64,000 nucleotides of DNA. Origin: a virus. Taxonomy: Duplodnaviria > Caudoviricetes. The notes under the pieces are model-generated. The model was not told the origin of the DNA and did no database searches. It saw only the letters and a list, made by a program, of their open reading frames with translations. The stretch covers positions 50,967 through 114,966 of IMG/VR virus record IMGVR_UViG_3300032332_000934. One strand, given 5' to 3'. A program made the translations under genes and the position numbers. Positions 36,879 to 64,000 of this stretch are shown piece by piece; the stretch's first letter is position 1; every line of letters begins with the position of its first letter.

Positions 36879-37465
36879 ACCTGCTCCAGGGATAAGTTAA
36901 CACTCCAAAATGGTTGTAGTCCTCTTTTTATAATTGTAAAATCGCATGAGCTGAACATCATTGTATAAGTATAATCATCTGCTAATGCTCCGTCAGACTG
37001 TTCAACTAAATCTATAGAAAAAACTGTTGGATTCAATTTGATTCTAAATGGAAGACGCCCTGCAGTGCTTTCATAAAAATTCTTTAAATCTTCTGCTCCC
37101 CAGGCACCGTCTACCGTTTCGTTTCTAAAAGATGGCAACATTTCCCAGGATACATTTACTGATAACTTATCTGCAATAAAATATTTCCTCATTATTCCAT
37201 TTGCCATTCTCTGTCCAGTTTCAATTCTATTAATATTAAGAGATAATGGTGATCGATTATGCTCAGTAACTCTTCTAAATTTTAATTGATTTTTAGAACT
37301 AAGAGATAAATTATTTACAGTTGCAGTTGCAGAATTATATGTAGATCCTGGAGCGGTAACTGTAGCACCCTTATAATCAAATGAATTTGTTGCTGGATCA
37401 ATTGCAAATGGATCAATTGCCTCAATATAAAGTATTGAGCCTTTGCTTAAATTTTGAAAACTCAT
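36875..37465 (-). CDS. Distal tail-like protein
   Basis: Directly after tape measure; RMANG.MR, VSWEMLPS, ends LEQV. Confidence 0.65.
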   Translation of the reverse strand: MSFQNLSKGSILYIEAIDPFAIDPATNSFDYKGATVTAPGSTYNSATATVNNLSLSSKNQLKFRRVTEHNRSPLSLNINRIETGQRMANGIMRKYFIADKLSVNVSWEMLPSFRNETVDGAWGAEDLKNFYESTAGRLPFRIKLNPTVFSIDLVEQSDGALADDYTYTMMFSSCDFTIIKRGLQPFWSVNLSLEQV

Positions 37466-40400
37466 TATGGACCAACCCTTCTATTTACTCCAGCAGCCAT
37501 TTCTCTAATTCTCATTTCTTTATGTATTGAAGCGGCAACTTCATCTGCTGTAAGATTAGTTCCATTTAACTCGACATTAATATTATACAATGAGTTTGAA
37601 GAGGAAGCAAGGCCGCCGTCTGCATATCTTACACGGCCACCACTTGACATCTTAGGAACATTATAACTAACCATTCCTCCAGATGCCATTCTATTAATAC
37701 TATCTAGCATTGGAACTCCAGCTGCTTGAACAGCTTTTGCATTTATTACATATTCACCATTTGAAAGCATTGCTGGAATAGAATCAGATGTTGGTGTTCC
37801 TGCTCCAGATATATATCCACCAGTAGCGGCTTTGATTCTAGATCCCTTGGTTTTTGTTTTATCATCCCAAGCGTAAACTTCTGTTCCGCTTTCATTGCTT
37901 ACATAGTCTTTACCGTTCCAACTAAATCTATACCATACAGTATCATTAATAGAAACCATTTTTGATGATCCTGCAGATCTAGCTTTTTTAGCTGCTTCCA
38001 AAGCTGTTTTCCCAGAACCAGATTGAATTTTATCTGGCCCAAATTCTACAGTTCCTTTTGGTGCTGGTCCCTTATATCCACCAAGAGCTCTTACAACTTC
38101 ATCCTTTAACTCTTTAAGAGTTGTTCCGCCAGTAATTGCTAATGCTAATTTTTCAACAGCTGCTAAGTCTTTATTAAATTGATTTAATACACTTGAATTT
38201 GTTGTTATATTTGATGAAAGTATTGGTTTACCATTTTTATCAAATCCAGTAGGTGATCCAGTTGTTGTTGTAGTTGGTGATTTAGGACTTCCATCTGCAT
38301 TAAAATATGCTGCAAAAGCATCTCTTGTTGTTTTAGCAGATGCGCTTGACCCAGTGCCAGATTTTTGAATTTCTTTAATTAATGCAATAAGCTCTGATGT
38401 TACTTTTGCTTCTGCGTCAGCTTTTTCTTTTGCTGGAAGAAGCTTTGCATCAATTGCTCTTGTAGTAAGGTCACTATATCTTGTTTGAAAGCCAGTTAGC
38501 TTTGTAACAATTTCAGCAGCAGATGCTGAATTATCTTGAGCATTTTGAAATGCTACTGTTGTTTTATCAGATGCATTTTGAATTCCCTCTGCTTGTTTTT
38601 CTAATGGAGCTTTAGCTTTTATTGCAGCATCTTCAATTGCTTTAGATGCTAACTCACTTTGTCTATTTGATGTAAGTTGATCAATATCTAGCTGTGCTCT
38701 TGTAGCAGTAGCCATATCTCCACGAGAAACTGCATCTGCATATTCTATTTGAAGTTTTTGTAATTCTATTGCATAATTTGATGCATCTTGAGTTGCTTTT
38801 AAAGCTTCTAATTTTTTATTTTTCTCATCTTCAATAAGCTTAATTTTTTTAGCAATTAACTTAAGTTCTTCTTGTGCACTTCTTTGTGCAGCTGCTGCAG
38901 ATCTTTGAGATGCAGCTGATGTTAACTTTATGCTATTTTGTAATTTTGTTAATGCTGCGCCGAGGGTACCAAACGTTGTTTCTGATCCAGCTGCTTTTGT
39001 TAAATCAGAGATTCCTGTTCCAATAGCTGATGTAAATCCAGCTAGTTTAATTGCTAATGTAGAATCAATTTTGCTTAAATCAATATTAATATTAGCTGTA
39101 AACAATTTCCATTTTGCTAATATTCCCTTTATGCTATCTGCCTCATTTGCAATTGATGCCAGCAGAGGTTGGGTTTTTTGAAGATTTGAATAAACATCTG
39201 ACCCAATTGCATTATTAATTCCTGGATTATTTTTTTCTGCATTAGACATAATTATTTGATAGGCTTTATACTCGTCAATAACATTTCCTAATTCATCTTT
39301 AGTTCCCACCAAGGAGGTTGTGGCATTTGTAAATACATTTATTAATCCCTCAAAACCATTTCCAACTTCTTTATACCAATCAGCTGTACCAGATCCTTTG
39401 TTCAAAGTATTTACTAGGTTACCAACTGAAAATTCTGCAGCTGAAGCTTTATCAATAATAGCTCCAAATTCTGTATCCGCAAGAACTTTATATGACTGAG
39501 ATGCTTTATTACTATTAGACAAAGCTCCCCAAATTTTTCTATTTGCCTCTTCAACACTTAAGCCAGCAGCAATCATTTGAGCTTTTTGATTTGATACTAG
39601 TCTATTTGTTTCTGATGAGCTTGAAGACCTATTAATAGATTCAATTAAATCTTTTAACCCTTTGCCTTCTTCTTTAGCTTTTTTCATATCTTCTATTGAT
39701 TGTGGCAATCCTGGCATTCCAATTCCACTATAAGAAGAACCTTTTGCTGCTGCAGTTACTGTTTTTTGCTTATCAATATACATTTGCATTGTTTCTTGAA
39801 GATTAAAATATTTTATTCCTGCTTGCTCGGCAGCTTTTGCAGTCATGGAAAGACCCATACGGGCATCTTGCCAATCATCTTGAACTCTTTTATAAATTTT
39901 AAATCCTTCAAATACTGCAGTTATTGCAAGTCCTACTGGGCCAAAGCCTTTTAAAACATTTAATGCTTTAGATGAAATTTCAGTAAGCGAAAGTGCTCCG
40001 CCTCTTAAAGATGTTAGTGCACCACTAACTGAAGCAATTCCAGCCTTTGCTTTATCTGCCATGGCAACCCATGGAATCATTGGAAGAATGCTTGAGCCAA
40101 TCATCAATCCCATACCAGCTTGCATTCCAGTTAGTCCGCCAACTTTTTCTTGCTGCATCATTGCCATTCCAGCCATTGATCCAGCCATACCAATTCCCAT
40201 TTGAGCTCCCATACCCATTCCGTTTGATCTTGGAATTGCATGTCCTGCTGCTGCAGCTTGTTTTGCACTCATTGCTTGGCCATTAACCATGTATTCAGTT
40301 TTTCTAAAACCTAAGCTTCCAACTTTTCTTTTTTCAATTCCTTCTTGGCCAGTTGGTTTCCATGAACCAATAATTCCTGGGCCAGTCATCATACCAACCT

Positions 40401-43400
40401 GCTTGCCAGTTGAAAGATTTATTGGCATTCCAGTTACTGGATGAAGTCCATATGCTCCAGGATATGCTTGTCCAAGTCTTCCAGCATTTTCTGCACGAAC
40501 TCCAGAAGCAAAAATACTTCCAGTTGCTTGCATCATTGTTGCTTTCATTCTCATTGTTGCAAGTGCTGATCTACCTGAGTTAACCATATTTTTTGTAAAC
40601 TCTTGATAAGCCTGCTTAACGTGAGTTCCAGATGTCATCAATCCATATCTTAATGTAACTGCACCCTTAGTAGCTGAGTTTGCAAGCAATGTAAATCCTG
40701 CTTCTAAATATCTTGCCTTCATAATTGCAGAGTTTCTAAATGGATCAACTATATTGTTAACCATTACTTGGCCAGGATTATAAAAACTTGTTGTTCCAGT
40801 TCTAACCGCTTCTCTTCCAAGTCCAGATGTTAGAGCTTGCTGTCCAGACATCTGATGAGAGGCTGCTCTAGAGGCTGCGGCTCTTGCATCTCTTTCTCTT
40901 TGTGCACGTTGCTCAGATTCCCATGCAGCTCTAGCAGCTGGGTTTCCAGGTCTTCCGTAAGCATGTCGGCCTCTTTGGATTGATCCTCCTATTGGGCCTC
41001 CGCTATTTCTTTTTGCCTGAACATGAACTGCGTGTAATGGTGTAAAGTCTGTCTCCATTCCAGCTTCAAATCTTTGTAGTAATTTAATGTATGGGGCTCT
41101 ATCTGCTTTTGGCATACTAGCAATAAACTTAACAAGCTTTGGATGCATTTTTTTCATAGCAGATTTCATTTTTCTGTCATACTGCTTTGCTGTCATTCCA
41201 CCAGCAATTGGTGCTGTGTTTACTGCAAAATCTTTTCTTGCCCCTCCTTTAACTCCAAGGAGATTTATCATTGCCTGCTCTCTCATTGAAGGAAGTGACT
41301 TTGCAAACTCTGTGTTACCAGATGCTTTTGGAAAAACTCCAGCTGCTCCGACATCAGCTAAAACATTTCCAAATACGTTTGATGGGGAAAGGTCTTTGTT
41401 ATTCATTACTAAAGAAGCAATTGTTTGTCTAATCATTTCATCTTCTGTGAATTGAGTTCCACCGCCAGCAAATCTTTTATCAAATGGTGATTCTAAACCT
41501 AGCAACTTTGATTTTCCAGATGGGTCAAGCGGGTTCAATATTGTTTTAATTGTTTGTTCTGGTGCATCTAAGCCAAAAACTTCCCTAGCCATTCTAGTTC
41601 CATATATTTCTGCTTTTGCAGATATTTCATTTGGAACACCCTTAAAGAATTTAAGATTTCCATTAGTGTCTTTATATAAACCAGAAACTCCAGGAACTGG
41701 ATAACTCATACCAGAACTTGGCTGGATCATATGACCATATTCGGTTGGGGCCATGCTTCCATAAGGACCATCAGCTGTTTGCTTTGACATAGCTCGTGCT
41801 GACTCTAAAATCTTAAGCTGTTTTCCTGGTGATAGCAAACTTAATAATGAAGATGTGGTAGTCACTTTATTTCTATTAGCTACTGCTTCTTTAATCCAAG
41901 GATACTTTATCATATCCGCCTCGCGCTTTTTAGCATTTGCTTCTTGCTGAGCTAGCCTTAAAGCTTCTAGTCTTGGAGATAGCGGAGGAATTCCATACGA
42001 AGATCGATTTGCAGATATTGATCCGCCTGGAATAATTCCACCCTTATTAAGCAGAACTGGAATAGGAGGCCTTCCTCTAAATACCCATTTCTTTCTAGAT
42101 GCAGCGGCTTCTAGCAACATACTTAATGAACTTCTTTGGTTCTTGGTTGATCTTACTACATTTCCAGATTGAATTTGAGCTTTGCTCTTAAATAATCCAT
42201 CATCTTGTAGTGCTGTAAATATATCATTTGGCGTAGCAATTCTTGAAAGCCCAACATTTTTTAATGCTAACTCAAGATTTTTTCTTGCATCTAAACCAGT
42301 TAAACTTAAAACATCTGGAGATATTCCTATTTTTTGAAGTGTAGCCATTACACTATTTATATCATGAGGAAGAACTGCAGCAACACCCATATGACCTCTA
42401 GTTGCATATCCAACCTGCCCATGTCTTAGCAGATGACCTCTTACATTTCTATCCAATAATGGTGAGCCGTTCGGATTAATTTTTGTTGGAGTTACATTTT
42501 CAACTAAATCCCATACATTTTCAAATGCTTTGCTATTTAACATAGCATCTCTTACTTTATTTAAATTATTATTTAAACCCTTACTAGCAGTAGTTCGTGT
42601 TGCAGCAGAATTTGGATGCTTTAATGCTGGGTATCTTCTTTCAAGGCCCTTGACCTGCTTAATTCTTTGTTCAATAAATTTTTCTAGAGATCCACCAGAA
42701 GATGCTTTTGCTAAATCAAAATTGCTTGAAGCAGCTCTAATAGCTCTTTCTGGAGACATTTTAGCATACTCAACTAGTTCAGATGCATCAAGCATAATCA
42801 TTCTTAGTCTAACATCATCTTCATATCTTGGATTATTAATAAATCTTAAATATTCCTTCATCTGTTTTTTAAATTCAGTTTTATTAATGCCATTTGGAGT
42901 ATTGACTGTTTCTCTTCCATAACCAGATACACCACTCATTATTTGCCCGCCAAAATTATATCCATTATTTGCTGCATCAATTGCAGCATAAAGCTCTGGC
43001 ATTTTTTGAATCTTTGGACCAAACACAGTTTCCCGTGGAGTAAGTGCTGCTGTTATTTCTCCGCCATTTTCATAAGTAGCTGATGCCATTGCAATAAGTG
43101 GTGCGTTTGCTGGATCCATTGAAGCACCTTGGTTTAACACATATCCACCTATTGGTACACTGCCAAGTCGATCATCATAATTTATTGATGATGGGCCAGA
43201 TACTGTTGTTCTATTAGGACCAAATGATTCTACATCTCCACCAGTATTAAATTTTGGAAGTCTTGTTGTTTGAATACTATATGGTGCTCCAAAGGTTCTA
43301 ACCCCACGTAATCTTCCAAACTCTTCCATTACAGAAGCATTTGCTTTTTTCTTATATAAATCTCTTAATGTAAATTGTCCATTAGTATCAACAACAGGTT

Positions 43401-45945
43401 GATTCATCATTGGAGCTTTTGTTGGATCTAATACTCTTCCTCTAGAAATAGCAAGCATCTGTATTTCACCTGACATTTGAGATTCAATGCTGGCATTAAG
43501 GGCTAATATTTTAGCTTTTGCTTCTTCTACTGTAATTTCAGCATTTCTCATTTGTTGTACAATCAATGCTGATTGATCTGCTGCAGAGATTGCAAATTTT
43601 TGAGTTATTGGCAATATGTCATCAAATGTATTTAATAATTCTGCACTAACAGTTCCGCCCATTGCAATTGTTTTCTTTAGTGCGGCAACCTCTTGCTCTG
43701 TTTGCATACCAAGCGTAGCCATAAGAGCATGGAATTTTGCAGCTTCTGCTGGTACAATTCCAGTTGAAATTCCTTTTACACTAGTAAGACCTTCAATATT
43801 TGGAAGCCTTTCATGCATATACATTTGAGGAGTTCTTGATATCCCTCTGTTAACTGGAACTGCTCCTGGAACTCCACCAAATATAGTTGCAGGATTATTA
43901 GCATCTCTAGGATTAATATGAGACATAGATCTAGTATTAGGATCTCCAACATAAGGATCATTAGGATCAACTACTCTTCTGCCTGCTGCCATAACTGGAT
44001 TGCCAGCAACTGTACTAATTGCTCCATTGACTGGCACAGCATTTTTCATTGATGCTGATTGAAGATTTTGATAATCTAAAACAAGCTTTTGTAATGCATT
44101 GTGTAAAACTTGAGCTGCTGCAGCATCTGAATAAAATGCATTTTCAACCATAAGTGCTGCTTTTTCAGCGGCAATAATTTCTGGAGTAAGCATTTTCCAT
44201 CCATGAGCTTTTTGAAAAAATGCTCTAAGTTGCACAACGCCTTTAGTTATATAACCAAAGAAGTTTGCAAGTACACCAGTTAACATAATAAGTGGTCCAA
44301 CTAAAGCAGTAAATCCTGCCATAAAAGTAAGAGCTTTTTTAATTGGCGTTGGAAGCCCAGTAAAGAAATCTAGAATTTTTGAAGCTGCATTAATAAATTT
44401 AGTAGCCACACCAAGAAATTCTTCACCTACAGATGCAAGCTCTGCTCTTAATCCTTCCATTGCTCTTTTATATTTACCTGATGCAGACTCTGTAACCATT
44501 CCTAATTCTCGACTAGCAACTGCTGCTAGATCTGATGTACTGGCTTTCATTAATTCCATAACCTGAACTGTTTGACTACCCTGTTTGCCTAAATTATTAA
44601 GTAAAGCACTCATTCTTGCAAACTGAAATTTGCCAAACATTTGTTCTAACGCTCTGGCTTTACTTAATGGGTCAAGCTTATCTAATGCTGATTGAAGATC
44701 AAGCAATAAACCTGTTGTATTACCAGTATTTTTTGCAACCATTCCCATAACATCAATACCAAACCCCGCCATCATTCCTGTTGTTTGTTTTGTTGGATTT
44801 ATTAGAGAAGCTAAACCAGACTTTAGTGCATTTGCGCCTTCAGCAGCACTAATTCCACCTTCACGCATAGCAGTTAAATAAAGAGCTAAATCTTTTACGC
44901 TACCTCCTAATTGATTAATAACTGGACCAGCTTTTGGAATTGCTTCTACCAGATCGTTAAGAGTTGTTGAAGTTTGGTTTTCTACTGCGTTTAAAAAGTT
45001 AATTGATTCCGTAAGCTCTTTTGTGTTTTGTTTAAAAGCTGTTTGAATTGATAGTGTAGCTTTCATTGCATCTTGTCTATCAACTTCACCCAGGATAGAT
45101 AGTCTAGTTGTTTCTGTTATTGATCCTAAAAGATCATTTCCAGTTTTTCCAGTTGCGGCAATATCAGCACCTAATGAAATAGTATCTTTAAATGAGGCAC
45201 CCATAGTTTGAGATAATGTTTTTGCAGTTTGTACAACTTCATCTCTGATGGCTTTTAAGTCTGTTGCGGAAGTAGCAGCTAGCCCTCCATAAACTTTTGT
45301 TAATCTTACTAGCTCTGCATCAGCTTCTCTAAATGCTTTTCCTGCTGCTGCGCCAAACATTGTTAAAGGAACTGTAAGCCCAACTGTTAATTGACGACCT
45401 GCCCACTGAGTATTTTTACCCCAATTAATTAATGATGTTGCTCCTTCAGATAATGCACGATTCATAATTTGCATTTCCATACGAGCTAATTGAGCACTAT
45501 TTCTTACAGCATCCAATCCTCTAGGAATCATTACATTATATTGCATTAAACCCTGAGCATTTCTTCCCAGTGGCTGCATCACGGCATTTTGAAGCATTAC
45601 CTGTTCTTTAGCAAGCTCCCTAATCATTCCTTTTTGGGAAGTGGCATGCTCTCTAAAAGTTTGGAAATAGTTCTTAAGCTTTAATCTTCCTGCATCTAAA
45701 TTTTTACCAAACTTATCTACATCAGAATTAAGATTTACAAAGTGACTAGAGAATTGTCCGCTTCCAGTTAACGTATCTCTAAATAAATTATTTGCTAATT
45801 TTGTTGAAGAAGAAATTGCTTTATTTGAAGCAAGCAGTTCTCTTTGTAATTGCTGGAGACTCGAACTAGCCCTGTGTACTTCAGACACAAGGCTAGATAA
45901 GTCGGCTTTGGCGACTATCGAGGTTACAATTTGTTCGTCAGCCAC
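37465..45945 (-). CDS. Tape measure protein (2826 aa) with embedded extra domains
   Basis: Helical TMP core, GGYISGAGTPTSDSIPAMLSNGEYV motif, follows tail chaperones. Confidence 0.92.
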   Translation of the reverse strand: MADEQIVTSIVAKADLSSLVSEVHRASSSLQQLQRELLASNKAISSSTKLANNLFRDTLTGSGQFSSHFVNLNSDVDKFGKNLDAGRLKLKNYFQTFREHATSQKGMIRELAKEQVMLQNAVMQPLGRNAQGLMQYNVMIPRGLDAVRNSAQLARMEMQIMNRALSEGATSLINWGKNTQWAGRQLTVGLTVPLTMFGAAAGKAFREADAELVRLTKVYGGLAATSATDLKAIRDEVVQTAKTLSQTMGASFKDTISLGADIAATGKTGNDLLGSITETTRLSILGEVDRQDAMKATLSIQTAFKQNTKELTESINFLNAVENQTSTTLNDLVEAIPKAGPVINQLGGSVKDLALYLTAMREGGISAAEGANALKSGLASLINPTKQTTGMMAGFGIDVMGMVAKNTGNTTGLLLDLQSALDKLDPLSKARALEQMFGKFQFARMSALLNNLGKQGSQTVQVMELMKASTSDLAAVASRELGMVTESASGKYKRAMEGLRAELASVGEEFLGVATKFINAASKILDFFTGLPTPIKKALTFMAGFTALVGPLIMLTGVLANFFGYITKGVVQLRAFFQKAHGWKMLTPEIIAAEKAALMVENAFYSDAAAAQVLHNALQKLVLDYQNLQSASMKNAVPVNGAISTVAGNPVMAAGRRVVDPNDPYVGDPNTRSMSHINPRDANNPATIFGGVPGAVPVNRGISRTPQMYMHERLPNIEGLTSVKGISTGIVPAEAAKFHALMATLGMQTEQEVAALKKTIAMGGTVSAELLNTFDDILPITQKFAISAADQSALIVQQMRNAEITVEEAKAKILALNASIESQMSGEIQMLAISRGRVLDPTKAPMMNQPVVDTNGQFTLRDLYKKKANASVMEEFGRLRGVRTFGAPYSIQTTRLPKFNTGGDVESFGPNRTTVSGPSSINYDDRLGSVPIGGYVLNQGASMDPANAPLIAMASATYENGGEITAALTPRETVFGPKIQKMPELYAAIDAANNGYNFGGQIMSGVSGYGRETVNTPNGINKTEFKKQMKEYLRFINNPRYEDDVRLRMIMLDASELVEYAKMSPERAIRAASSNFDLAKASSGGSLEKFIEQRIKQVKGLERRYPALKHPNSAATRTTASKGLNNNLNKVRDAMLNSKAFENVWDLVENVTPTKINPNGSPLLDRNVRGHLLRHGQVGYATRGHMGVAAVLPHDINSVMATLQKIGISPDVLSLTGLDARKNLELALKNVGLSRIATPNDIFTALQDDGLFKSKAQIQSGNVVRSTKNQRSSLSMLLEAAASRKKWVFRGRPPIPVLLNKGGIIPGGSISANRSSYGIPPLSPRLEALRLAQQEANAKKREADMIKYPWIKEAVANRNKVTTTSSLLSLLSPGKQLKILESARAMSKQTADGPYGSMAPTEYGHMIQPSSGMSYPVPGVSGLYKDTNGNLKFFKGVPNEISAKAEIYGTRMAREVFGLDAPEQTIKTILNPLDPSGKSKLLGLESPFDKRFAGGGTQFTEDEMIRQTIASLVMNNKDLSPSNVFGNVLADVGAAGVFPKASGNTEFAKSLPSMREQAMINLLGVKGGARKDFAVNTAPIAGGMTAKQYDRKMKSAMKKMHPKLVKFIASMPKADRAPYIKLLQRFEAGMETDFTPLHAVHVQAKRNSGGPIGGSIQRGRHAYGRPGNPAARAAWESEQRAQRERDARAAASRAASHQMSGQQALTSGLGREAVRTGTTSFYNPGQVMVNNIVDPFRNSAIMKARYLEAGFTLLANSATKGAVTLRYGLMTSGTHVKQAYQEFTKNMVNSGRSALATMRMKATMMQATGSIFASGVRAENAGRLGQAYPGAYGLHPVTGMPINLSTGKQVGMMTGPGIIGSWKPTGQEGIEKRKVGSLGFRKTEYMVNGQAMSAKQAAAAGHAIPRSNGMGMGAQMGIGMAGSMAGMAMMQQEKVGGLTGMQAGMGLMIGSSILPMIPWVAMADKAKAGIASVSGALTSLRGGALSLTEISSKALNVLKGFGPVGLAITAVFEGFKIYKRVQDDWQDARMGLSMTAKAAEQAGIKYFNLQETMQMYIDKQKTVTAAAKGSSYSGIGMPGLPQSIEDMKKAKEEGKGLKDLIESINRSSSSSETNRLVSNQKAQMIAAGLSVEEANRKIWGALSNSNKASQSYKVLADTEFGAIIDKASAAEFSVGNLVNTLNKGSGTADWYKEVGNGFEGLINVFTNATTSLVGTKDELGNVIDEYKAYQIIMSNAEKNNPGINNAIGSDVYSNLQKTQPLLASIANEADSIKGILAKWKLFTANINIDLSKIDSTLAIKLAGFTSAIGTGISDLTKAAGSETTFGTLGAALTKLQNSIKLTSAASQRSAAAAQRSAQEELKLIAKKIKLIEDEKNKKLEALKATQDASNYAIELQKLQIEYADAVSRGDMATATRAQLDIDQLTSNRQSELASKAIEDAAIKAKAPLEKQAEGIQNASDKTTVAFQNAQDNSASAAEIVTKLTGFQTRYSDLTTRAIDAKLLPAKEKADAEAKVTSELIALIKEIQKSGTGSSASAKTTRDAFAAYFNADGSPKSPTTTTTGSPTGFDKNGKPILSSNITTNSSVLNQFNKDLAAVEKLALAITGGTTLKELKDEVVRALGGYKGPAPKGTVEFGPDKIQSGSGKTALEAAKKARSAGSSKMVSINDTVWYRFSWNGKDYVSNESGTEVYAWDDKTKTKGSRIKAATGGYISGAGTPTSDSIPAMLSNGEYVINAKAVQAAGVPMLDSINRMASGGMVSYNVPKMSSGGRVRYADGGLASSSNSLYNINVELNGTNLTADEVAASIHKEMRIREMAAGVNRRVGP

Positions 45946-46615
45946 TAATTACTCCTAGAGTATCCTAGCCCTGCGCCAATTCCAAATCCAGCTTGCGCTG
46001 CTAGAGGTCCTTGTAATCCAACAACATCATCTGATGATGCTGTAATTCCAAGAGCTCTTCTTTGGATATCTTCAAAGGTAGAACCTTTTTGTTTTTCTTC
46101 TTCTGCATCATCATCTAATTGAATTCCTTTTAGTGATGCTGCAAACTTTCTCTGGTTATGTTCTTTTTGATTCATTGCTGTTATGGTCTGAATCAATTCT
46201 GGCATTGATAAATTCTCTTCTAACTCCTCGTAATTCTTCCAATGTCCTAAAAGAAAAACTTGTCCCTCTAAAGCGGCTAAATCTAGTTCTGACCAGCCAG
46301 TACCGCTGCCGCTATTAGGTTTGGGTCGTCCATCTTAATTCCTCCACAAACTTCAAGGATTCTGTTAATAGTTGGAACATCCAATGCATCTTCAAGCTTA
46401 TCAAGATCAGCAACTAGATCTGGCAGTTGAGTTTCCAATGCCACTCCACATGCTTCAACTAAAATGCCGAGTGTTGCAGTCTCGTCTTCTGCATCTTGTA
46501 CTTTTTTAATTACTTCCATGAACTTTCGTAGTTGCTTGATTGATAGTGGCTTGAGCTTTACTTTAGCTCCGCTTTGTAGTTCAATCTCTTCTACATCATA
46601 TACAGTTGTTGCCAA
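45945..46615 (-). CDS. Tail assembly chaperone pair (G/GT); short form 46283-46615, long form via -1 frameshift
   Basis: -1 frame open from slippery site through GWSELDLAALEGQVFLLGHWKNYEELEE into ORF 45945..46205. Confidence 0.82.
46319..46325 (-). other. -1 ribosomal slippery heptamer C CCA AAC
   Basis: XXXYYYZ in frame (Asp-Pro-Asn) shortly before the stop of the short chaperone. Confidence 0.75.
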
Positions 46616-46720: not shown

Positions 46721-47482
46721 TTAAACTGATAGAACACGGTCAATAATCTTTCCATATTCTGAACCAACGTGAGCTGAGTCACCTGATGGTAGAAGACGGA
46801 ATGTTACTGGGAATGTTGTTGCTGCTGTACGAGCCAAAGAGAACTGTGACTGCTCAACAGACAAAACACGACGTGCATAATATACACGCTCAGTTGCTGA
46901 TGCTTGTGAAGTCGGAGCCTGTCCAACTGCAATTAGCTGACGCTCTGTTGGAGCTGCACCAAGTGCACCTGCTTCCAAACCTAATGTGTCGACTGCTGTT
47001 GCGCCTGTTCCTGTTGATGTAAGTGTTGATCCCTTTTGACCAAATACTGCAAGAACGTTCTCTAGAGTACCTTCTGCCATTTCTGTAGAAATTTGAACCT
47101 GCATAGCAGACTTAAATAGCTTAGCTGTGTCAAGTAGCTGATCTACTGTTACTGAGTCGTATGTTGGCTGATAGCTGATCTGAAGACCATTATTTGTATA
47201 ACCAACGTTACGATATGCTCCACCGATTGCTGGTGTTGCCTCTGTAGGTGATGCTGTTTGAGTAGCACCTGTTGTTGTTAAAACTTTGTTTAGTGTTGTA
47301 GTATAAGACTCTCCTGATGAGAATGCTGGTACATAACGATTCTTTGATGCAACGAAAGCATTTGATGCGCCTGCGTCCATGCTTGAATCATAACCAGAAA
47401 CTGTTGAATCTTCTACTGACAAAAATAGTGGTGATGCGCCAACAAGAATATTCTTAGCGTCACCTGTATTTTGATATGCCAT
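46721..47482 (-). CDS. Major tail tube protein
   Basis: NILVGA, VGYTNNGL, VDQLLD, EGTLEN, PVTFRLLP; AGGAGG SD before MAYQ. Confidence 0.85.
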   Translation of the reverse strand: MAYQNTGDAKNILVGASPLFLSVEDSTVSGYDSSMDAGASNAFVASKNRYVPAFSSGESYTTTLNKVLTTTGATQTASPTEATPAIGGAYRNVGYTNNGLQISYQPTYDSVTVDQLLDTAKLFKSAMQVQISTEMAEGTLENVLAVFGQKGSTLTSTGTGATAVDTLGLEAGALGAAPTERQLIAVGQAPTSQASATERVYYARRVLSVEQSQFSLARTAATTFPVTFRLLPSGDSAHVGSEYGKIIDRVLSV

Positions 47483-47555
47483 AATTGTATTGCCTCCTGA
47501 TTTCATGAAATTGATATATATATATTTGGCTGGCTAGGCCCTTTCCTCTGTTCTA

Positions 47556-50785: not shown

Positions 50786-51841
50786 TTAAGAAGCAACCTT
50801 AACGTCTTTAACGACAACCCATGCGTCTGCCTGCTCAATTTGAGTACCAACACGAGTATACATTGTATATTCGATTGAGTCTTTCTTTGGCCAGAAGAAG
50901 CGATAAACAGTTACATCACGCTTGATACCAATAACAACGTTATTAGGGAATGTCAAGTGGACGTCTCCGTGCTCTCCTGTTGGGCTTGCATATGAACCAG
51001 TCTGAGTTTCTTTTAGTAGCGGAACTTCAACAATTGGAATACCAAATGCAAATGGAGCTACGAAACCTGCTGGACCACCGAGTCCTGATTCGTTTCCACG
51101 AATAATGCTTGAAGCAATATCCTGTGGGTTTGCAGAACCATAGTTACCTAGCTGTGAAGCTGAATACAAATAGTCCTGAATTAAGTTTGAGCCTGCAAGG
51201 AAGCGTAGGTCTGGACGACGTTGCTTGTACTTACGTGGCATAGCCTTAAGAGCCTTGTTAAATATTTCACGAGACACTGCTGCGCCCGCTCCAGCTACTA
51301 CGTGGCCGTTTGCCTTTGCAATCTTGACAATACCGTCGAATGCCTTATAAAGGTTATCTCCAGTTAGAGCTGTGTTACCGTTAAGGACTACATCCTCTAG
51401 GTCGTTACCAGCCTGTGTTGCCATAAGTCTTGCAATGTGATCTTCTAGGTCAGCACCTTCAATATTGTCTTCTAGAGACTCAGTTGAAAGTTCCCAATCT
51501 AGGCGAAGTTTCTTTGTTGTGAGAGAAATCTTTGAGAACTGCACTGCTGCATTTGAGCCAGTATTCTCGGCTTCGGTTGCAAGCTTCATAAGCTTCTCAC
51601 CAACGCCAACGCGATCAATCTCTGTAGTGTCAGCTCTCATTCGAACTGTACGTGCTACCTTACCGATTACTGTTGCATCGAACATGTAATCTAGGAATCT
51701 TGCGGATTGCTCAGGATTGAGCAAGCCTCCCTTACCCTCGGAACCTACGTGAATTCCGTCGGTTGGGTTTGCAGAACCTACCATGCTACCTGTTAAAGTA
51801 GAATTTGCTTCTGCTGCTTTTGCTAATAGTTCATTACTCAT
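50786..51841 (-). CDS. Major capsid protein (HK97 fold)
   Basis: GGLLNPEQSARF, ESLEDNIEG, GNDLED, GIPIVEVP. Confidence 0.92.
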   Translation of the reverse strand: MSNELLAKAAEANSTLTGSMVGSANPTDGIHVGSEGKGGLLNPEQSARFLDYMFDATVIGKVARTVRMRADTTEIDRVGVGEKLMKLATEAENTGSNAAVQFSKISLTTKKLRLDWELSTESLEDNIEGADLEDHIARLMATQAGNDLEDVVLNGNTALTGDNLYKAFDGIVKIAKANGHVVAGAGAAVSREIFNKALKAMPRKYKQRRPDLRFLAGSNLIQDYLYSASQLGNYGSANPQDIASSIIRGNESGLGGPAGFVAPFAFGIPIVEVPLLKETQTGSYASPTGEHGDVHLTFPNNVVIGIKRDVTVYRFFWPKKDSIEYTMYTRVGTQIEQADAWVVVKDVKVAS

Positions 51842-53228: not shown

Positions 53229-54809
53229 CTAGTTGACTTGTCTTCCATCTCCCTTTGTATTTCTGCCCTCCCCAGATTTATCTGGAGAATTGGCTGACCT
53301 TTCTTGATCACGAGTTCTGCTTTGTGTAGCTTGGGCTTTAATTTCGGCTGCTTGGGCTGCAAGATCTACTGGGACATCCCCACCGTCTCTTGGAACCATG
53401 CCCATTCTAACTCTAATTTCATTTGGAGTTATTACCTGGAATCTAAGATATCTTTCATCAATTTTAGATTGAGTATCAGCATCAGTAAGACTTAATTCAT
53501 TAAATTTAAGCTCTAAAGCATCAGTCATTTCCTGTACTATTTTATTTAATTTTTTCTCTAAAATATCTTGAGCTGGGGCACAAACTTGCTCTTTAAATGT
53601 TTTATCTGCGTCTCTAGCATTTGCCAAAGATACGCCAGTTGCAGTTCCAATTTTATTAATTGGAACTCTGTGGGCCATCAATATTTCATCCCTATTAGAT
53701 TGACGATAAATATTAAATGAAGACTCTTGAGATCCCGCTTCAATTGGCTCCATTTTAAATTCAGTTTTTGAATCTGGGGAATCTGGAGGAAGCGGAATAT
53801 ATAGAGATCTATGATTCTTGCCTCTTAATCCTACTTGGAAAAACTCAAGCAATTTTCTTTCTGATTCCGCAGAAAGCTTTGCTCCCTTTACTGTAATAAT
53901 ATATCTTGGTACCGCTTTATTCTCAAAGTAGTCTAAGTTATACTTACCAGCAAATTCATTACCAGCCATAGCATTTTGTGCTGCAATAATATCTGGGATA
54001 CCATAATAGTTATTTTTTGGAGTATACTTTTTTAAATGAATAATTTCATTTGGTCTATCTTCTTGGCCAGCTATTGGATTTACAGTTTTTGTGTCTCCAA
54101 AATTTCTAAAAAATACAGCCTTGCCATAAAGTAATTGAATAAAACCGTCTCTAAAGCGTCTTACACGCATTGTTTTTGAAGGTACATGCCCAATGTACCC
54201 AATCTTTCCAGTAGTGGTTCTACCGACCTCCAGATACCCATTACCAGTAGCTTCTACGTCTGTGTAAAACTTGATAAGCGTTTCTTTAAAAGTTTCATCA
54301 TCATTACAATCCTCAAGCCACGTATGAAGGTCTTGCTTAATTCTATTTAGCTTTTTGCGAGCACGGTCTAATTGCTTTTCATCTTCAATGCCGTCAAGGG
54401 CATCTGTAGTTTTTTTTGATTCAATAAAATCAAAGCCTAGGCCAACAATGTTAGAAACTTTTGCATTAATTGCAGCATAGTTATATGGAGAAATTTCATA
54501 AATAGTTGAAAGATAATCTAGATTATATTCTGGCTGTATTAGATCAAACATAGCATATCCGCTTACTGCCTGCTGAACTTGAAGTTGCTGGCTTACTGCG
54601 CCATCTTTACCTACAAATGCTTTTTGAAATTCTCTCGAAACTTTTCTTCTAAAAGATGGCCCAAGCCCAGAAAGCTTTAATATTTCTTCAGCATCCATTT
54701 CAAATGTATCGTCTGATTTTTGTGTTGTTGGATTATTAAATCTCATCCAGTCTGCGACATTAGATATTTCTACGCTATCTGCAACTGCATCTTCATCGTA
54801 TTCAATCAT
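53229..54809 (-). CDS. Portal protein (PBSX/HK97 family)
   Basis: TGNGYLE, NEIIHLK, YYGIP, YFENKAVP, ITPNEIR. Confidence 0.92.
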   Translation of the reverse strand: MIEYDEDAVADSVEISNVADWMRFNNPTTQKSDDTFEMDAEEILKLSGLGPSFRRKVSREFQKAFVGKDGAVSQQLQVQQAVSGYAMFDLIQPEYNLDYLSTIYEISPYNYAAINAKVSNIVGLGFDFIESKKTTDALDGIEDEKQLDRARKKLNRIKQDLHTWLEDCNDDETFKETLIKFYTDVEATGNGYLEVGRTTTGKIGYIGHVPSKTMRVRRFRDGFIQLLYGKAVFFRNFGDTKTVNPIAGQEDRPNEIIHLKKYTPKNNYYGIPDIIAAQNAMAGNEFAGKYNLDYFENKAVPRYIITVKGAKLSAESERKLLEFFQVGLRGKNHRSLYIPLPPDSPDSKTEFKMEPIEAGSQESSFNIYRQSNRDEILMAHRVPINKIGTATGVSLANARDADKTFKEQVCAPAQDILEKKLNKIVQEMTDALELKFNELSLTDADTQSKIDERYLRFQVITPNEIRVRMGMVPRDGGDVPVDLAAQAAEIKAQATQSRTRDQERSANSPDKSGEGRNTKGDGRQVN

Positions 54810-61931: not shown

Positions 61932-62855
61932 TTAGTACGCTCTTAAGCTAAAGTATCCGCCAAATGCTGGTGGGCTGAAGAAGCCAGGTGGGAAGAACGG
62001 TGGGCTAAAGAAGCCAGGTGGGAAGAACGGTGGGCTAAAGAAGCCAGGTGGGAAGAACGGTGGACTAAAGAACACTGGCGGAAAGAAAGGTGGGGAAAAG
62101 AAGCCAGGTGGGAAGAACGGTGGGCTAAAGAAGCCAGGTGGGAAGAACGGTGGGCTAAAGAAGCCAGGTGGGAAGAACGGTGGGCTAAAGAAGCCAGGTG
62201 GGAAGAACGGTGGGCTAAAGAATGAAGGGGGCAAAGTTGTAACAGTACTAGAGAAAGCTGAAAATGAACTAGAGCCATTTACATTTCTTGCCCGTACTTT
62301 GTAAGCTTGTGAAGTATTTGCTTCATTTGCAATAGTTGTGCTTCCATTTGATGCGGTTGTAACTGTTTTATTTTTTGGAGTCGTTTCGTTTGATTCAATA
62401 TATATGTCAAGTATTGTCTGTCCACCATTAGCATTAAGTACCCAGCTAATTGTATCTAGGTCAACGCCAGCTGTTGCTGTTGGGGTATTTGGTGCTTGTG
62501 GAACAGTAGTTGCTGTTGCTGCTGGTGCAGCAACTGCATTTGAAGAATTATCTAAATAGGAGTCGTAAGACGAAACTGCATATGTATGTGAAGTATTTGA
62601 CAACAAGCCAGTTATTAAAGCTGTATTTGTGCCATAAGCAACAGTTGCCTTTAGAACTCCAGACTCATAAACTTTATATCCAGTAGGTGTATTTCCTGCT
62701 ACTGGCGCTGACCATGAAACTGTAATTGCTCCGTCATTAAATGGTCTACCGTTGTTTGATCCGTTTAGATAATCTGTTGCGGTTACTCCAGTTACTGGAT
62801 TTGGTCCAATAAAGTTATCTTGAGCAGATGACTTTCTACCTATATGTTTTGACAT
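61932..62855 (-). CDS. Two-Fn3-domain protein with C-terminal Pro/Phe decamer repeats
   Basis: VSWSAP...GYKV...TGL..NT..TYAV, YKVRARN; tail (PPFFPP[G/V]FFS)8. Confidence 0.85.
   Translation of the reverse strand: MSKHIGRKSSAQDNFIGPNPVTGVTATDYLNGSNNGRPFNDGAITVSWSAPVAGNTPTGYKVYESGVLKATVAYGTNTALITGLLSNTSHTYAVSSYDSYLDNSSNAVAAPAATATTVPQAPNTPTATAGVDLDTISWVLNANGGQTILDIYIESNETTPKNKTVTTASNGSTTIANEANTSQAYKVRARNVNGSSSFSAFSSTVTTLPPSFFSPPFFPPGFFSPPFFPPGFFSPPFFPPGFFSPPFFPPGFFSPPFFPPVFFSPPFFPPGFFSPPFFPPGFFSPPFFPPGFFSPPAFGGYFSLRAY
61981..62220 (-). repeat. Eight tandem 30-bp units (+ strand AAGCCAGGTGGGAAGAACGGTGGGCTAAAG)
   Basis: Six identical copies, one with one substitution, one with several synonymous changes plus G>V. 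Confidence 0.97.
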
Positions 62856-62881
62856 TTATATCTCCTATTTCTTTATATTAA

Positions 62882-64000
62882 TTAAGCTTTTAGATCTCCA
62901 GCAAGCAACCAAGTATCTGTTGCAACCTTTGTTAGTGTTGCAGAAGATGCTGTAGATCTTAGTGTCTGTCCTGGTGTAGCAAGTGGTGTTACACCTGAGG
63001 CAAATACAAAGTTTGCTCCAGTTCCAGATGCTTGGTAGAAGCTTATTGAAGTTCCAATTGGATATGCTGTTGTTGCATTCAATGGAACTGTAATTGTTTG
63101 TGTGCCTGAAATTGGTATTAACTGATCTCTTAGAGCAAGTCCGCCTGTTGATAGGTTGTATGCTGCAGAAATTGTAGTTCCAATTGTAGTTCGTGATGGA
63201 ACTCCTTCTTTTGTTTGTGTACCATCTGAAAACTGCACACCATTTGCTGACATATTTGATGTTCCAGATACTGTAATATTTGCTACAGTATTTGTACCTG
63301 TAAATGTTGGTGAAGCAAGTGGTGCATAAGTTGATGCAGCTGTTGCTGAAGCGAGCTTAAGATCAAGTGCTGTTTGTGTAGCAGTTGATATTGGCTTTGC
63401 TGTATCTGCTGTGTTGTCAACTGAACCTAGACCAACCATTGACTTTGTTATACCAGACACTGTTCCTGTAAATGTTGGTGAGGCAAGTGGAGCTTTTAAT
63501 GCAATTGAGTTTGTTATTGTTGTTGAGAATGATGCGTCATTTCCAAGAGCAGTTGCTAACTCATTAAGAGTATCTAATGCTGCTGGTGCTGATGCCACGA
63601 GGTTTGAAACAGCTGTTCCTACAAATGCTGTAGTTGCAACTTGAGTTGTATTTGTTCCCGCTGCTGCTGTTGGTGCAGTCGGTGTACCAGTAAGTGCTGG
63701 TGAGGCTAATGGAGCTTTTAAAGCTACATTAGAAATTGTTTCATAAGTTGTTGCAGCTGTTGCTGAAGCGAGCTTAAGATCAAGCGCTGTTTGTGTAGCG
63801 GTTGAGACTGGCTTAGCTGTATCTGCTGTGTTGTCAACTGAACCTAGACCAACCATTGACTTTGTTATACCAGACACAGTACCTGTGAATGTTGGTGAAG
63901 CAAGGTCTGCTTTTAATCCTAAGCTTGTTGAAAGGCCTGAGATCTTAGACTGAGCAATACCTGCTGATGCGTTAACGTCTGCATCAACAATTGTTCCATC
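62882..64000 (-). CDS. Tail fibre-like repeat protein (5' end beyond window)
   Basis: Frame open to window end; PLASPTFTG, VGLGSVDNT.D..KPVSTA, APAALDTLNELA repeats; C-terminal WLLAGDL domain. Confidence 0.85.
   Translation of the reverse strand, partial: DGTIVDADVNASAGIAQSKISGLSTSLGLKADLASPTFTGTVSGITKSMVGLGSVDNTADTAKPVSTATQTALDLKLASATAATTYETISNVALKAPLASPALTGTPTAPTAAAGTNTTQVATTAFVGTAVSNLVASAPAALDTLNELATALGNDASFSTTITNSIALKAPLASPTFTGTVSGITKSMVGLGSVDNTADTAKPISTATQTALDLKLASATAASTYAPLASPTFTGTNTVANITVSGTSNMSANGVQFSDGTQTKEGVPSRTTIGTTISAAYNLSTGGLALRDQLIPISGTQTITVPLNATTAYPIGTSISFYQASGTGANFVFASGVTPLATPGQTLRSTASSATLTKVATDTWLLAGDLKA
63336..63904 (-). repeat. ~150-bp intragenic direct repeat (63336-63487 and 63753-63904)
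   Basis: Near-identical copies encoding ASPTFTGTVSGITKSMVGLGSVDNTADTAKP.STATQTALDLKLASATAA. Confidence 0.9.

Follow-up and report, generated by a model that had tools for sequence, protein, structure and literature searches.

Known passengers of tape measure proteins (TMPs) include wall-degrading enzymes, whose site of action is outside the cell; the Rpf/M23 motifs of the mycobacteriophage TM4 TMP and the peptidase of T5 Pb2 are TMP-embedded domains of this kind. A phage kinase that acts on host proteins early in infection is represented by T7 gp0.7, which is absent from the virion and made once entry has taken place. The nearest published concept to the element described here is the polyvalent-protein kinase, which shares this idea, is predicted to be delivered as protein, is defined by loss of the C-terminal subdomain, and occurs in elements of Verrucomicrobia, Chlamydia and Bacteroidetes, with no mention of TMPs (Iyer et al. 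2017, PMC5512222). The element in question is a kinase-like module in the TMP gene of an uncultured phage, IMG/VR record IMGVR_UViG_3300032332_000934. The record is a complete 114,966-bp virus genome with direct terminal repeats, and the window, meaning the whole stretch analysed, is its right-hand 64 kb (64,000 nucleotides, record positions 50,967 to 114,966). We read residues ~1384-1645 of the TMP as a predicted catalytically competent atypical kinase of the PKL superfamily, carried as a passenger cassette in giant TMPs and acting on the host at entry, and give this reading a probability of roughly 0.6. No report of a TMP-borne kinase came up in full-text literature searches. TMP passenger enzymes and phage-delivered kinases are already known kinds; what is new is the sequence family of the kinase.

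The module lies within one long gene:

37465-45945, minus strand: TMP gene, 2826 residues, a single open reading frame (ORF) whose GTG start overlaps the stop of the upstream ORF in the chaperone position

The initial annotation, made from the window sequence, had placed the module in a TMP, and profile matches show that this ORF is one. PF10145 (TP901-type) matches residues 239-438 (E 1e-25, 91 bits, cut-off 33), TIGR01760 matches at E 8e-27 (94 bits, cut-off 29), and 13 PHROG TMP families match the ORF, the best at 2e-115. The gene also has the position of a TP901-type TMP: tube and chaperone genes precede it and the distal tail genes follow. Its N-terminal 650 residues are 33% identical to the TMP of the Streptomyces phage Genie2 (E 5e-78).

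A 12-residue linker motif, GG-x-[IV]-x6-YG preceded by N-x-GG, was found by regular expression in three copies in the TMP, at residues 999, 1307 and 1653. Around the kinase module it may also be written GGxIxxxRxxYG, and two copies bound the module. The span originally assigned to the kinase, 41010-41990, encodes residues 1319-1646, exactly the interval separating these two linkers. Translation of the single TMP ORF placed all six motifs quoted for the module where they had been reported. The features of the module are as follows.

41008-41991, minus strand: kinase cassette between the linkers, residues 1319-1646 (~330 residues)
41011-41796, minus strand: conserved kinase core, residues 1384-1645, the stretch matched by distant homologues, with the conservation peak and pLDDT mostly >90
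41485-41739, minus strand: N-lobe, strands b1-b5 plus helix C, residues 1403-1487, from model secondary structure and invariance
Residues 1412-1424, minus strand, within the N-lobe: Gly-rich loop GxSxPxxGxxGxY
41671-41691, minus strand: GVSGLYK, residues 1419-1425
41641-41652, minus strand: KFFK, residues 1432-1435
41641-41643, minus strand: K1435
41557-41619, minus strand: AKAEIYGTRMAREVFGLDAPE, residues 1443-1463
41608-41610, minus strand: E1446
41482-41505, minus strand: LLGLESPF, residues 1481-1488
41374-41418, minus strand: ASLVMNNKDLSPSNV, residues 1510-1524
41377-41397, minus strand: catalytic loop K-D-L-S-P-S-N, residues 1517-1523 (D1518, N1523), following the helix of residues 1501-1513 in the model
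41347-41361, minus strand: LADVG, residues 1529-1533
41347-41355, minus strand: metal-binding D-V-G, the DFG equivalent, residues 1531-1533 (D in 239/239 and G in 236/239 aligned segments)

Homologues were sought by word-indexed and by profile searches. A word-indexed search with residues 1300-1660 generated 362 proteins, all of 1.5-4.9 thousand residues and nearly all with PF10145. Searched exhaustively with HMMER, 1.8 billion cluster representatives yielded 157 matches, 126 of them at E<=1e-30; these cover the conserved stretch, residues ~1384-1645, and are only TMP-like giants and fragments. As lower bounds, the family counts 362 clusters at the 90% identity level, 157 at the 50% level and 241 IMG/VR stretches. 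The kinase module was found once in its own genome, in a search that doubled as a positive control.

Conservation was examined in an alignment of 239 domain segments with identity down to ~30%. The Gly-rich loop, Lys, Glu, D-x4-N and D-x-G pointed out in the initial annotation are the most conserved positions of the family. G1412, G1422, K1435, E1446, P1462, Q1507, N1523, D1531 and F1573 are kept in 239/239 segments, and S1414, D1518, S1486, A1541 and Y1619 in 238/239. Positions kept in >90% include, among others, Y1424, R1454, K1517, L1519, G1533, G1536, S1542, N1561, G1567 and H1641. Because the catalytic-residue motifs stay invariant in an alignment this divergent, they are, judged from sequence, not chance resemblances. 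Along the full TMP the kinase core forms a local conservation peak of 0.65-0.73, compared with 0.38-0.47 in its flanks.

The catalytic-loop His had been noted as replaced by Ser, and position 1520 is indeed Ser here. It is Ser in 169, Gln in 25 and Gly in 20 of the 239 segments, and so is never His in its three commonest states (214/239). The loss of a His found in related families speaks for a pseudokinase, or for a nucleotide-binding module without phosphotransfer, which could serve as an ATP sensor signalling arrival in the cytoplasm or as a binding scaffold; many atypical kinase folds are pseudoenzymes. A typical pseudokinase, however, has lost one or more of the catalytic Asp, Asn, metal-binding Asp, Lys and Glu, all of which this family keeps in 238-239/239 segments. 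A module without phosphotransfer is therefore improbable.

A single-sequence AlphaFold model was uninformative (pLDDT 42), whereas an alignment-based model was informative. It covers residues 1364-1660, was built from a 62-row alignment (A2) derived from 81 IMG/VR loci, and has a pLDDT of 89.4 and a pTM of 0.86. Its elements, in residues of the TMP and all on the minus strand, are listed below.

1403-09: strand 1
1422-26: strand 2
1431-36: strand 3, ending in K1435
1440-55: helix C, bearing E1446
1465-70: strand 4
1480-87: strand 5
1501-13: helix preceding the catalytic loop
1517-23: catalytic loop K-D-L-S-P-S-N
Up to 1531-33: two short strands, then D-V-G
1554-1642: five helices after D-V-G, forming the C-lobe

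In the model the secondary structure of the module maps exactly onto a kinase. The hallmarks of the PKL superfamily are present, namely a bilobal fold, a strand-3 Lys with a helix-C Glu, and a D-x4-N loop with a downstream metal-binding Asp. The kinase-like fold proposed from the letters is borne out by this model, which has CtkA, HipA and PI4KII among its structural neighbours (Foldseek probability for CtkA 0.99-1.0). The two columns of the structure-comparison table read as follows.

CotH: 11.5 (216 residues, 4.2 A) and 11.7
CtkA: 9.1 and 10.8
PI4KII (alpha/beta): 9.9 and 9.9
MavQ: 9.8 and 9.8
LepB N-domain: no entry and 9.4
Fam20 / Golgi casein kinase: 8.8 and 9.2
HipA / HipT: 8.6 and 8.8
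Actin-fragmin kinase: 8.3 and 8.4
PI3K / PIKK: 7-8.4 and, for VPS34, 8.6

In an ESM-Atlas feature search the nearest named clusters were PI3_PI4_kinase, HipA_2 and LepB_N at 0.86, which are leads only. Foldseek against predicted viral structures (BFVD) produced best matches with E 3e-6 to 6e-4 and probability 1.0, stronger than any PDB match. Like the TMP, the matched proteins are large multi-domain phage proteins, among them annotated ADP-ribosyltransferases (Mycobacterium phage Onyinye, uncultured Caudovirales) and portal/head-morphogenesis (MuF) fusions. Further matches were 'PI3K/PI4K catalytic domain' proteins and proteins of the Gordonia phages GodonK and Sixama and of haloviruses. The relation is by fold only, and it suggests that kinase folds are more widespread among proteins accompanying the DNA of phages.

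The module had no significant Pfam, NCBIfam or PHROG profile match when searched as the window's own sequence, nor any to Pfam or NCBIfam over 62 members. PF00454 was touched by 1/62 members at E 0.008, below threshold, and not by the window's own sequence. Among PDB sequences nothing significant was found for the module, by phmmer or by profile. The HipA family was rejected, with no match to PF07804, PF07805 or PF13657, no HipA N-terminal domain, and an hhalign probability of 0.1% for A2 against Escherichia coli HipA. The PI3K/PI4K family was rejected as well: PF00454 stays below its gathering threshold, and the loop reads K-D-L-[S/Q/G]-x-x-N, not D-R-H-x-x-N. Nor was there a match to PF08757, the profile of the CotH family. 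The module combines a modelled kinase fold with no profile-family membership, so that it is, going by the model, a PKL-fold kinase of a new sequence family and not a HipA, PI3/4K or CotH protein.

The spore coat of Bacillus contains CotH (PDB 5JD9/5JDA, PF08757), an atypical protein kinase. Its fold is among the nearest, but its identity to the module is 7-8% and it is a stand-alone cellular protein, whereas the module sits inside a virion protein. Unlike CtkA, the secreted Ser/Thr kinase of Helicobacter pylori (PDB 3AKJ-3AKL), and the HipA/HipT toxin kinases, the module has neither HipA Pfam domains nor the post-Asp His. It likewise differs from PI4KII alpha/beta and the Legionella lipid-kinase effectors MavQ and LepB (PF00454-like) in having no DRH motif and no known membrane anchor. 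A polyvalent-protein kinase was rejected since the defining loss of the C-terminal subdomain does not apply: this kinase keeps a C-lobe of five helices after DVG in the model, and it is located in a TMP. Kinase folds have also been recruited for AMPylation, as in SelO, and for glutamylation, as in SidJ. Here, however, the canonical K/E/D/N/D set is complete and invariant and SelO- or SidJ-type entries are not among the best 50 structural rows, which makes such other chemistry very unlikely.

On the protein-kinase side the structural neighbours are CotH, CtkA, HipA and Fam20, and on the lipid-kinase side PI4KII, MavQ, LepB and VPS34, so that either class of substrate may apply. One variant of the preferred reading fixes the substrate as a lipid of the host cytoplasmic membrane at the entry site, for example phosphatidylinositol, whose phosphorylation would shift local charge or curvature and so help pore formation or DNA passage. 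This variant is attractive because actinobacteria, unlike most bacteria, make phosphatidylinositol, although its presence in the host is assumed from general knowledge. It is nevertheless doubtful: CotH and CtkA, which rank best among the neighbours, phosphorylate proteins, the His of DRHxxN is missing, and no membrane-binding element was identified in the module.

The distribution of the cassette was followed in 265 kinase-bearing proteins, of which 218 have the TMP N-terminal domain. The remaining 47/265 are mostly N-terminally truncated or short fragments, with a few long ones in which no N-domain was detectable. Matches of 79-776 residues in the profile search, candidates for stand-alone or cellular homologues, were all either split pieces or fragments from contigs shorter than 6 kb. 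These searches place the kinase solely in giant TMPs of uncultured phages, with no stand-alone form; the kinase profile finds no match in Genie2. An assembly chimera was rejected, as hundreds of independent contigs share the architecture. A foreign origin by composition was also rejected, the cassette having a GC3 of 0.19-0.24, within the range along the gene.

Among the 120 TMPs nearest to this one in the N-terminal 700 residues, 117 bear the kinase. The other three (P0326, P0328 and P0329) are 75-79% identical to this TMP in that region, and in them the same linkers bound blocks of 345-560 residues that are dissimilar to the kinase. On this comparison the ruler proper does not include the kinase, which is a passenger that can be absent or exchanged. 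TMP-embedded wall-degrading domains are likewise enzymes carried as TMP passengers, but their substrate, peptidoglycan, lies outside the membrane and they work without ATP, whereas a kinase needs cytoplasmic ATP. They are also C-terminal, in contrast to the central position of the kinase; longer relatives of this TMP add CHAP, LysM or OmpA domains near the C-terminus.

The linkers bound a second cassette directly upstream of the kinase.

42916-42957, minus strand: linker 1, NFGG-QIMSGVSGYG, residues 997-1010, by regular expression; the motif class flanks cassettes in relatives
42049-42915, minus strand: cassette A, residues 1011-1299, linker-bounded
41992-42048, minus strand: linker 2, NKGGIIPGG-SISANRSSYG, residues 1300-1318, by regular expression
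40954-41007, minus strand: linker 3, NSGGPIGG-SIQRGRHAYG, residues 1647-1664, by regular expression

Cassette A had no match in Pfam, PHROG, NCBIfam or ESM-Atlas. It is present in 10/11 newly fetched kinase-bearing relatives tested and absent from the three kinase-less ones. Its slot is absent in a distant clade, whose kinase sits at residues ~750-1020. In the close clade (identity >=46%) GG...YG linkers flank the core upstream in 125/225 and downstream in 116/225 cases. Copies of ...PAML-x-PGEAVIP..., the motif that also ends this TMP, take the place of these linkers around the kinase of the distant clade. The module may be freed by processing at the GG...YG linkers. Relatives share ~90% identity over the N-terminal 1000 residues but only 30-70% in the central region. 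The sharp boundary near residue 1000 suggests recombination within the gene and a mosaic evolution of its central region.

Two parts of the TMP have a hydrophobic character.

44245-44337, minus strand: hydrophobic membrane-helix-like segment, residues 537-567 (Kyte-Doolittle 19-residue window >1.5)
39910-40113, minus strand: two hydrophobic membrane-helix-like segments in a Gly/Met/Ala-rich stretch, residues 1945-2012

In siphovirus tails the TMPs are extended helical chains that fill the lumen; their C-terminus, located at the tip, leaves first, and the protein is expelled into the envelope ahead of the DNA. From this background we infer how the cassette could act. It would be stored unfolded or extended in the tail tube. 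On infection the C-terminal part of the TMP would breach the wall and the hydrophobic segments of residues 1945-2012 would enter the membrane, after which the central part could reach the cytoplasmic side and refold, possibly with release of the module at the linkers. Once refolded, the kinase would phosphorylate a host target with ATP of the cell as infection starts, ahead of phage gene expression, the target being a protein (as for CotH, CtkA and HipA) or a membrane lipid (as for PI4KII, MavQ and LepB). The phage may in this way push a ready-made kinase into the host with its DNA, with both activity and delivery being predicted. The earlier reading of a kinase or pseudokinase effector in a TMP is supported to that extent.

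Several points weigh against a delivered, active kinase. Foldseek E-values against the PDB are weak, with a best value of 3.6e-3, and identity to any solved kinase is 7-16%. The K-E pair and the pocket geometry are taken from secondary-structure position only. The residue two after the catalytic Asp varies (S, Q or G), while it is His in PI3/4K and HipA. No cultured relative carries the cassette, as tblastn against 50,697 cultured phage records gave none even at E<=10. A tail lumen of ~4 nm should be too narrow for three copies of a folded 30-kDa domain, so storage in the tube and refolding have to be assumed. There is no ATP outside the cytoplasmic membrane, and we know of no phage for which cytoplasmic exposure of this part of the TMP has been demonstrated.

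The misfit between folded domain and tube would be avoided if the kinase acted in the producing cell, phosphorylating the TMP, the chaperones or tail parts at assembly, or being excised at the linkers as a late cytoplasmic enzyme. ATP is plentiful there, the domain can fold ahead of tube polymerisation, and the conserved linkers that bound the cassette could be cleavage sites. Yet a protein present in few copies per virion is an odd supply route for a cytoplasmic enzyme, the slot also takes unrelated cassettes, and the wall-degrading domains of the relatives make sense only on entry. Closely related TMPs and the Genie2 TMP, moreover, manage without the kinase. We regard a role in the producing cell as unlikely and prefer a kinase that acts on the host at entry. 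A bolder form of this preferred reading, which we put forward tentatively and at a clearly lower level of belief, takes the TMPs of these lake actinophages as polymorphic effector-delivery polyproteins. Slots defined by the conserved GGxIxxxRxxYG / NxGG linkers would accept unrelated cassettes, among them the kinase, cassette A and other modules, and linker cleavage after ejection would free the kinase at the cytoplasmic face, where it would phosphorylate a membrane lipid (e.g. phosphatidylinositol) or a defence or translation protein before phage gene expression.

An ATP-dependent enzyme in a TMP implies either that part of the TMP reaches the cytoplasm and refolds or that the TMP is a polyprotein. 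Cytoplasmic TMP entry and TMP polyproteins are open questions of siphovirus genome delivery, and the cassette is a handle for both. The family is confined to abundant, uncultured freshwater phages and would be a new atypical kinase family invisible to current profile libraries. If active and delivered, the kinase would be a protein-borne, pre-transcriptional tool for host takeover or anti-defence, and TMPs would be effector carriers in the manner of polymorphic toxin systems.

Other features of the TMP and its neighbourhood are given below.

44632-45231, minus strand: TP901-type TMP core domain, residues 239-438, the best stretch of Pfam PF10145
37588-37830, minus strand: C-terminal TMP motif region with SDSIPAMLSNGEYVI, residues 2706-2786 (phrog_23013, E 7e-11)
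45945-46615, minus strand: two small ORFs in the tail-assembly-chaperone position, 86 and 110 residues (phrog_10474, phrog_10504)
46721-47506, minus strand: tail tube protein with an Ig-like domain (PF25681, E 6e-5; phrog_2175, E 4e-27)
53229-54809, minus strand: portal

Genie2 genes at the position of the two small ORFs are annotated as tail assembly chaperones. Genes of 196 and 1087 residues sit downstream of the TMP. The minus strand carries nearly all genes of the window.

The structural gene order matches that of the Stanwilliamsviridae Streptomyces phages, for example Genie2 (131 kb), in which portal, protease, capsid, major tail, two chaperones, TMP and minor tail follow one another as in this phage. 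The portal is 60% identical to the portals of these phages. A WhiB-family gene (PF02467, E 1.5e-13) lies outside the window at record positions 43768-43941, minus strand. WhiB is an actinoviral hallmark (10.1101/655167), and the gene points to an actinobacterial host. An identical TMP is present on a 115,315-bp ENA metagenome scaffold. Relatives were found in metagenome-assembled genome (MAG) bins that carry the label 'bacterium' or Nitrososphaeria; mis-binning of phage contigs is the probable cause. In a GTDB scan of 185,579 species genomes the sole match to the kinase family, at 40% identity, was the 85-kb contig CAZCDW010000001.1 of a Bifidobacterium-labelled MAG. This contig, possibly of phage origin or a prophage, might offer a clue to the host; Bifidobacterium was not adopted as the host, a single match being insufficient alone for the assignment. 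We infer that an actinobacterium from a lake-type community is the most likely host, and the phages with the cassette probably infect actinobacteria. The G+C content of the genome is only ~36%, in contrast to the likeness of its portal and gene order to those of Streptomyces phages. Window positions 62001-64000, at the record's right-hand end, are unlike the remainder of the window, with G+C up to 0.42 and a positive GC skew (+0.20).

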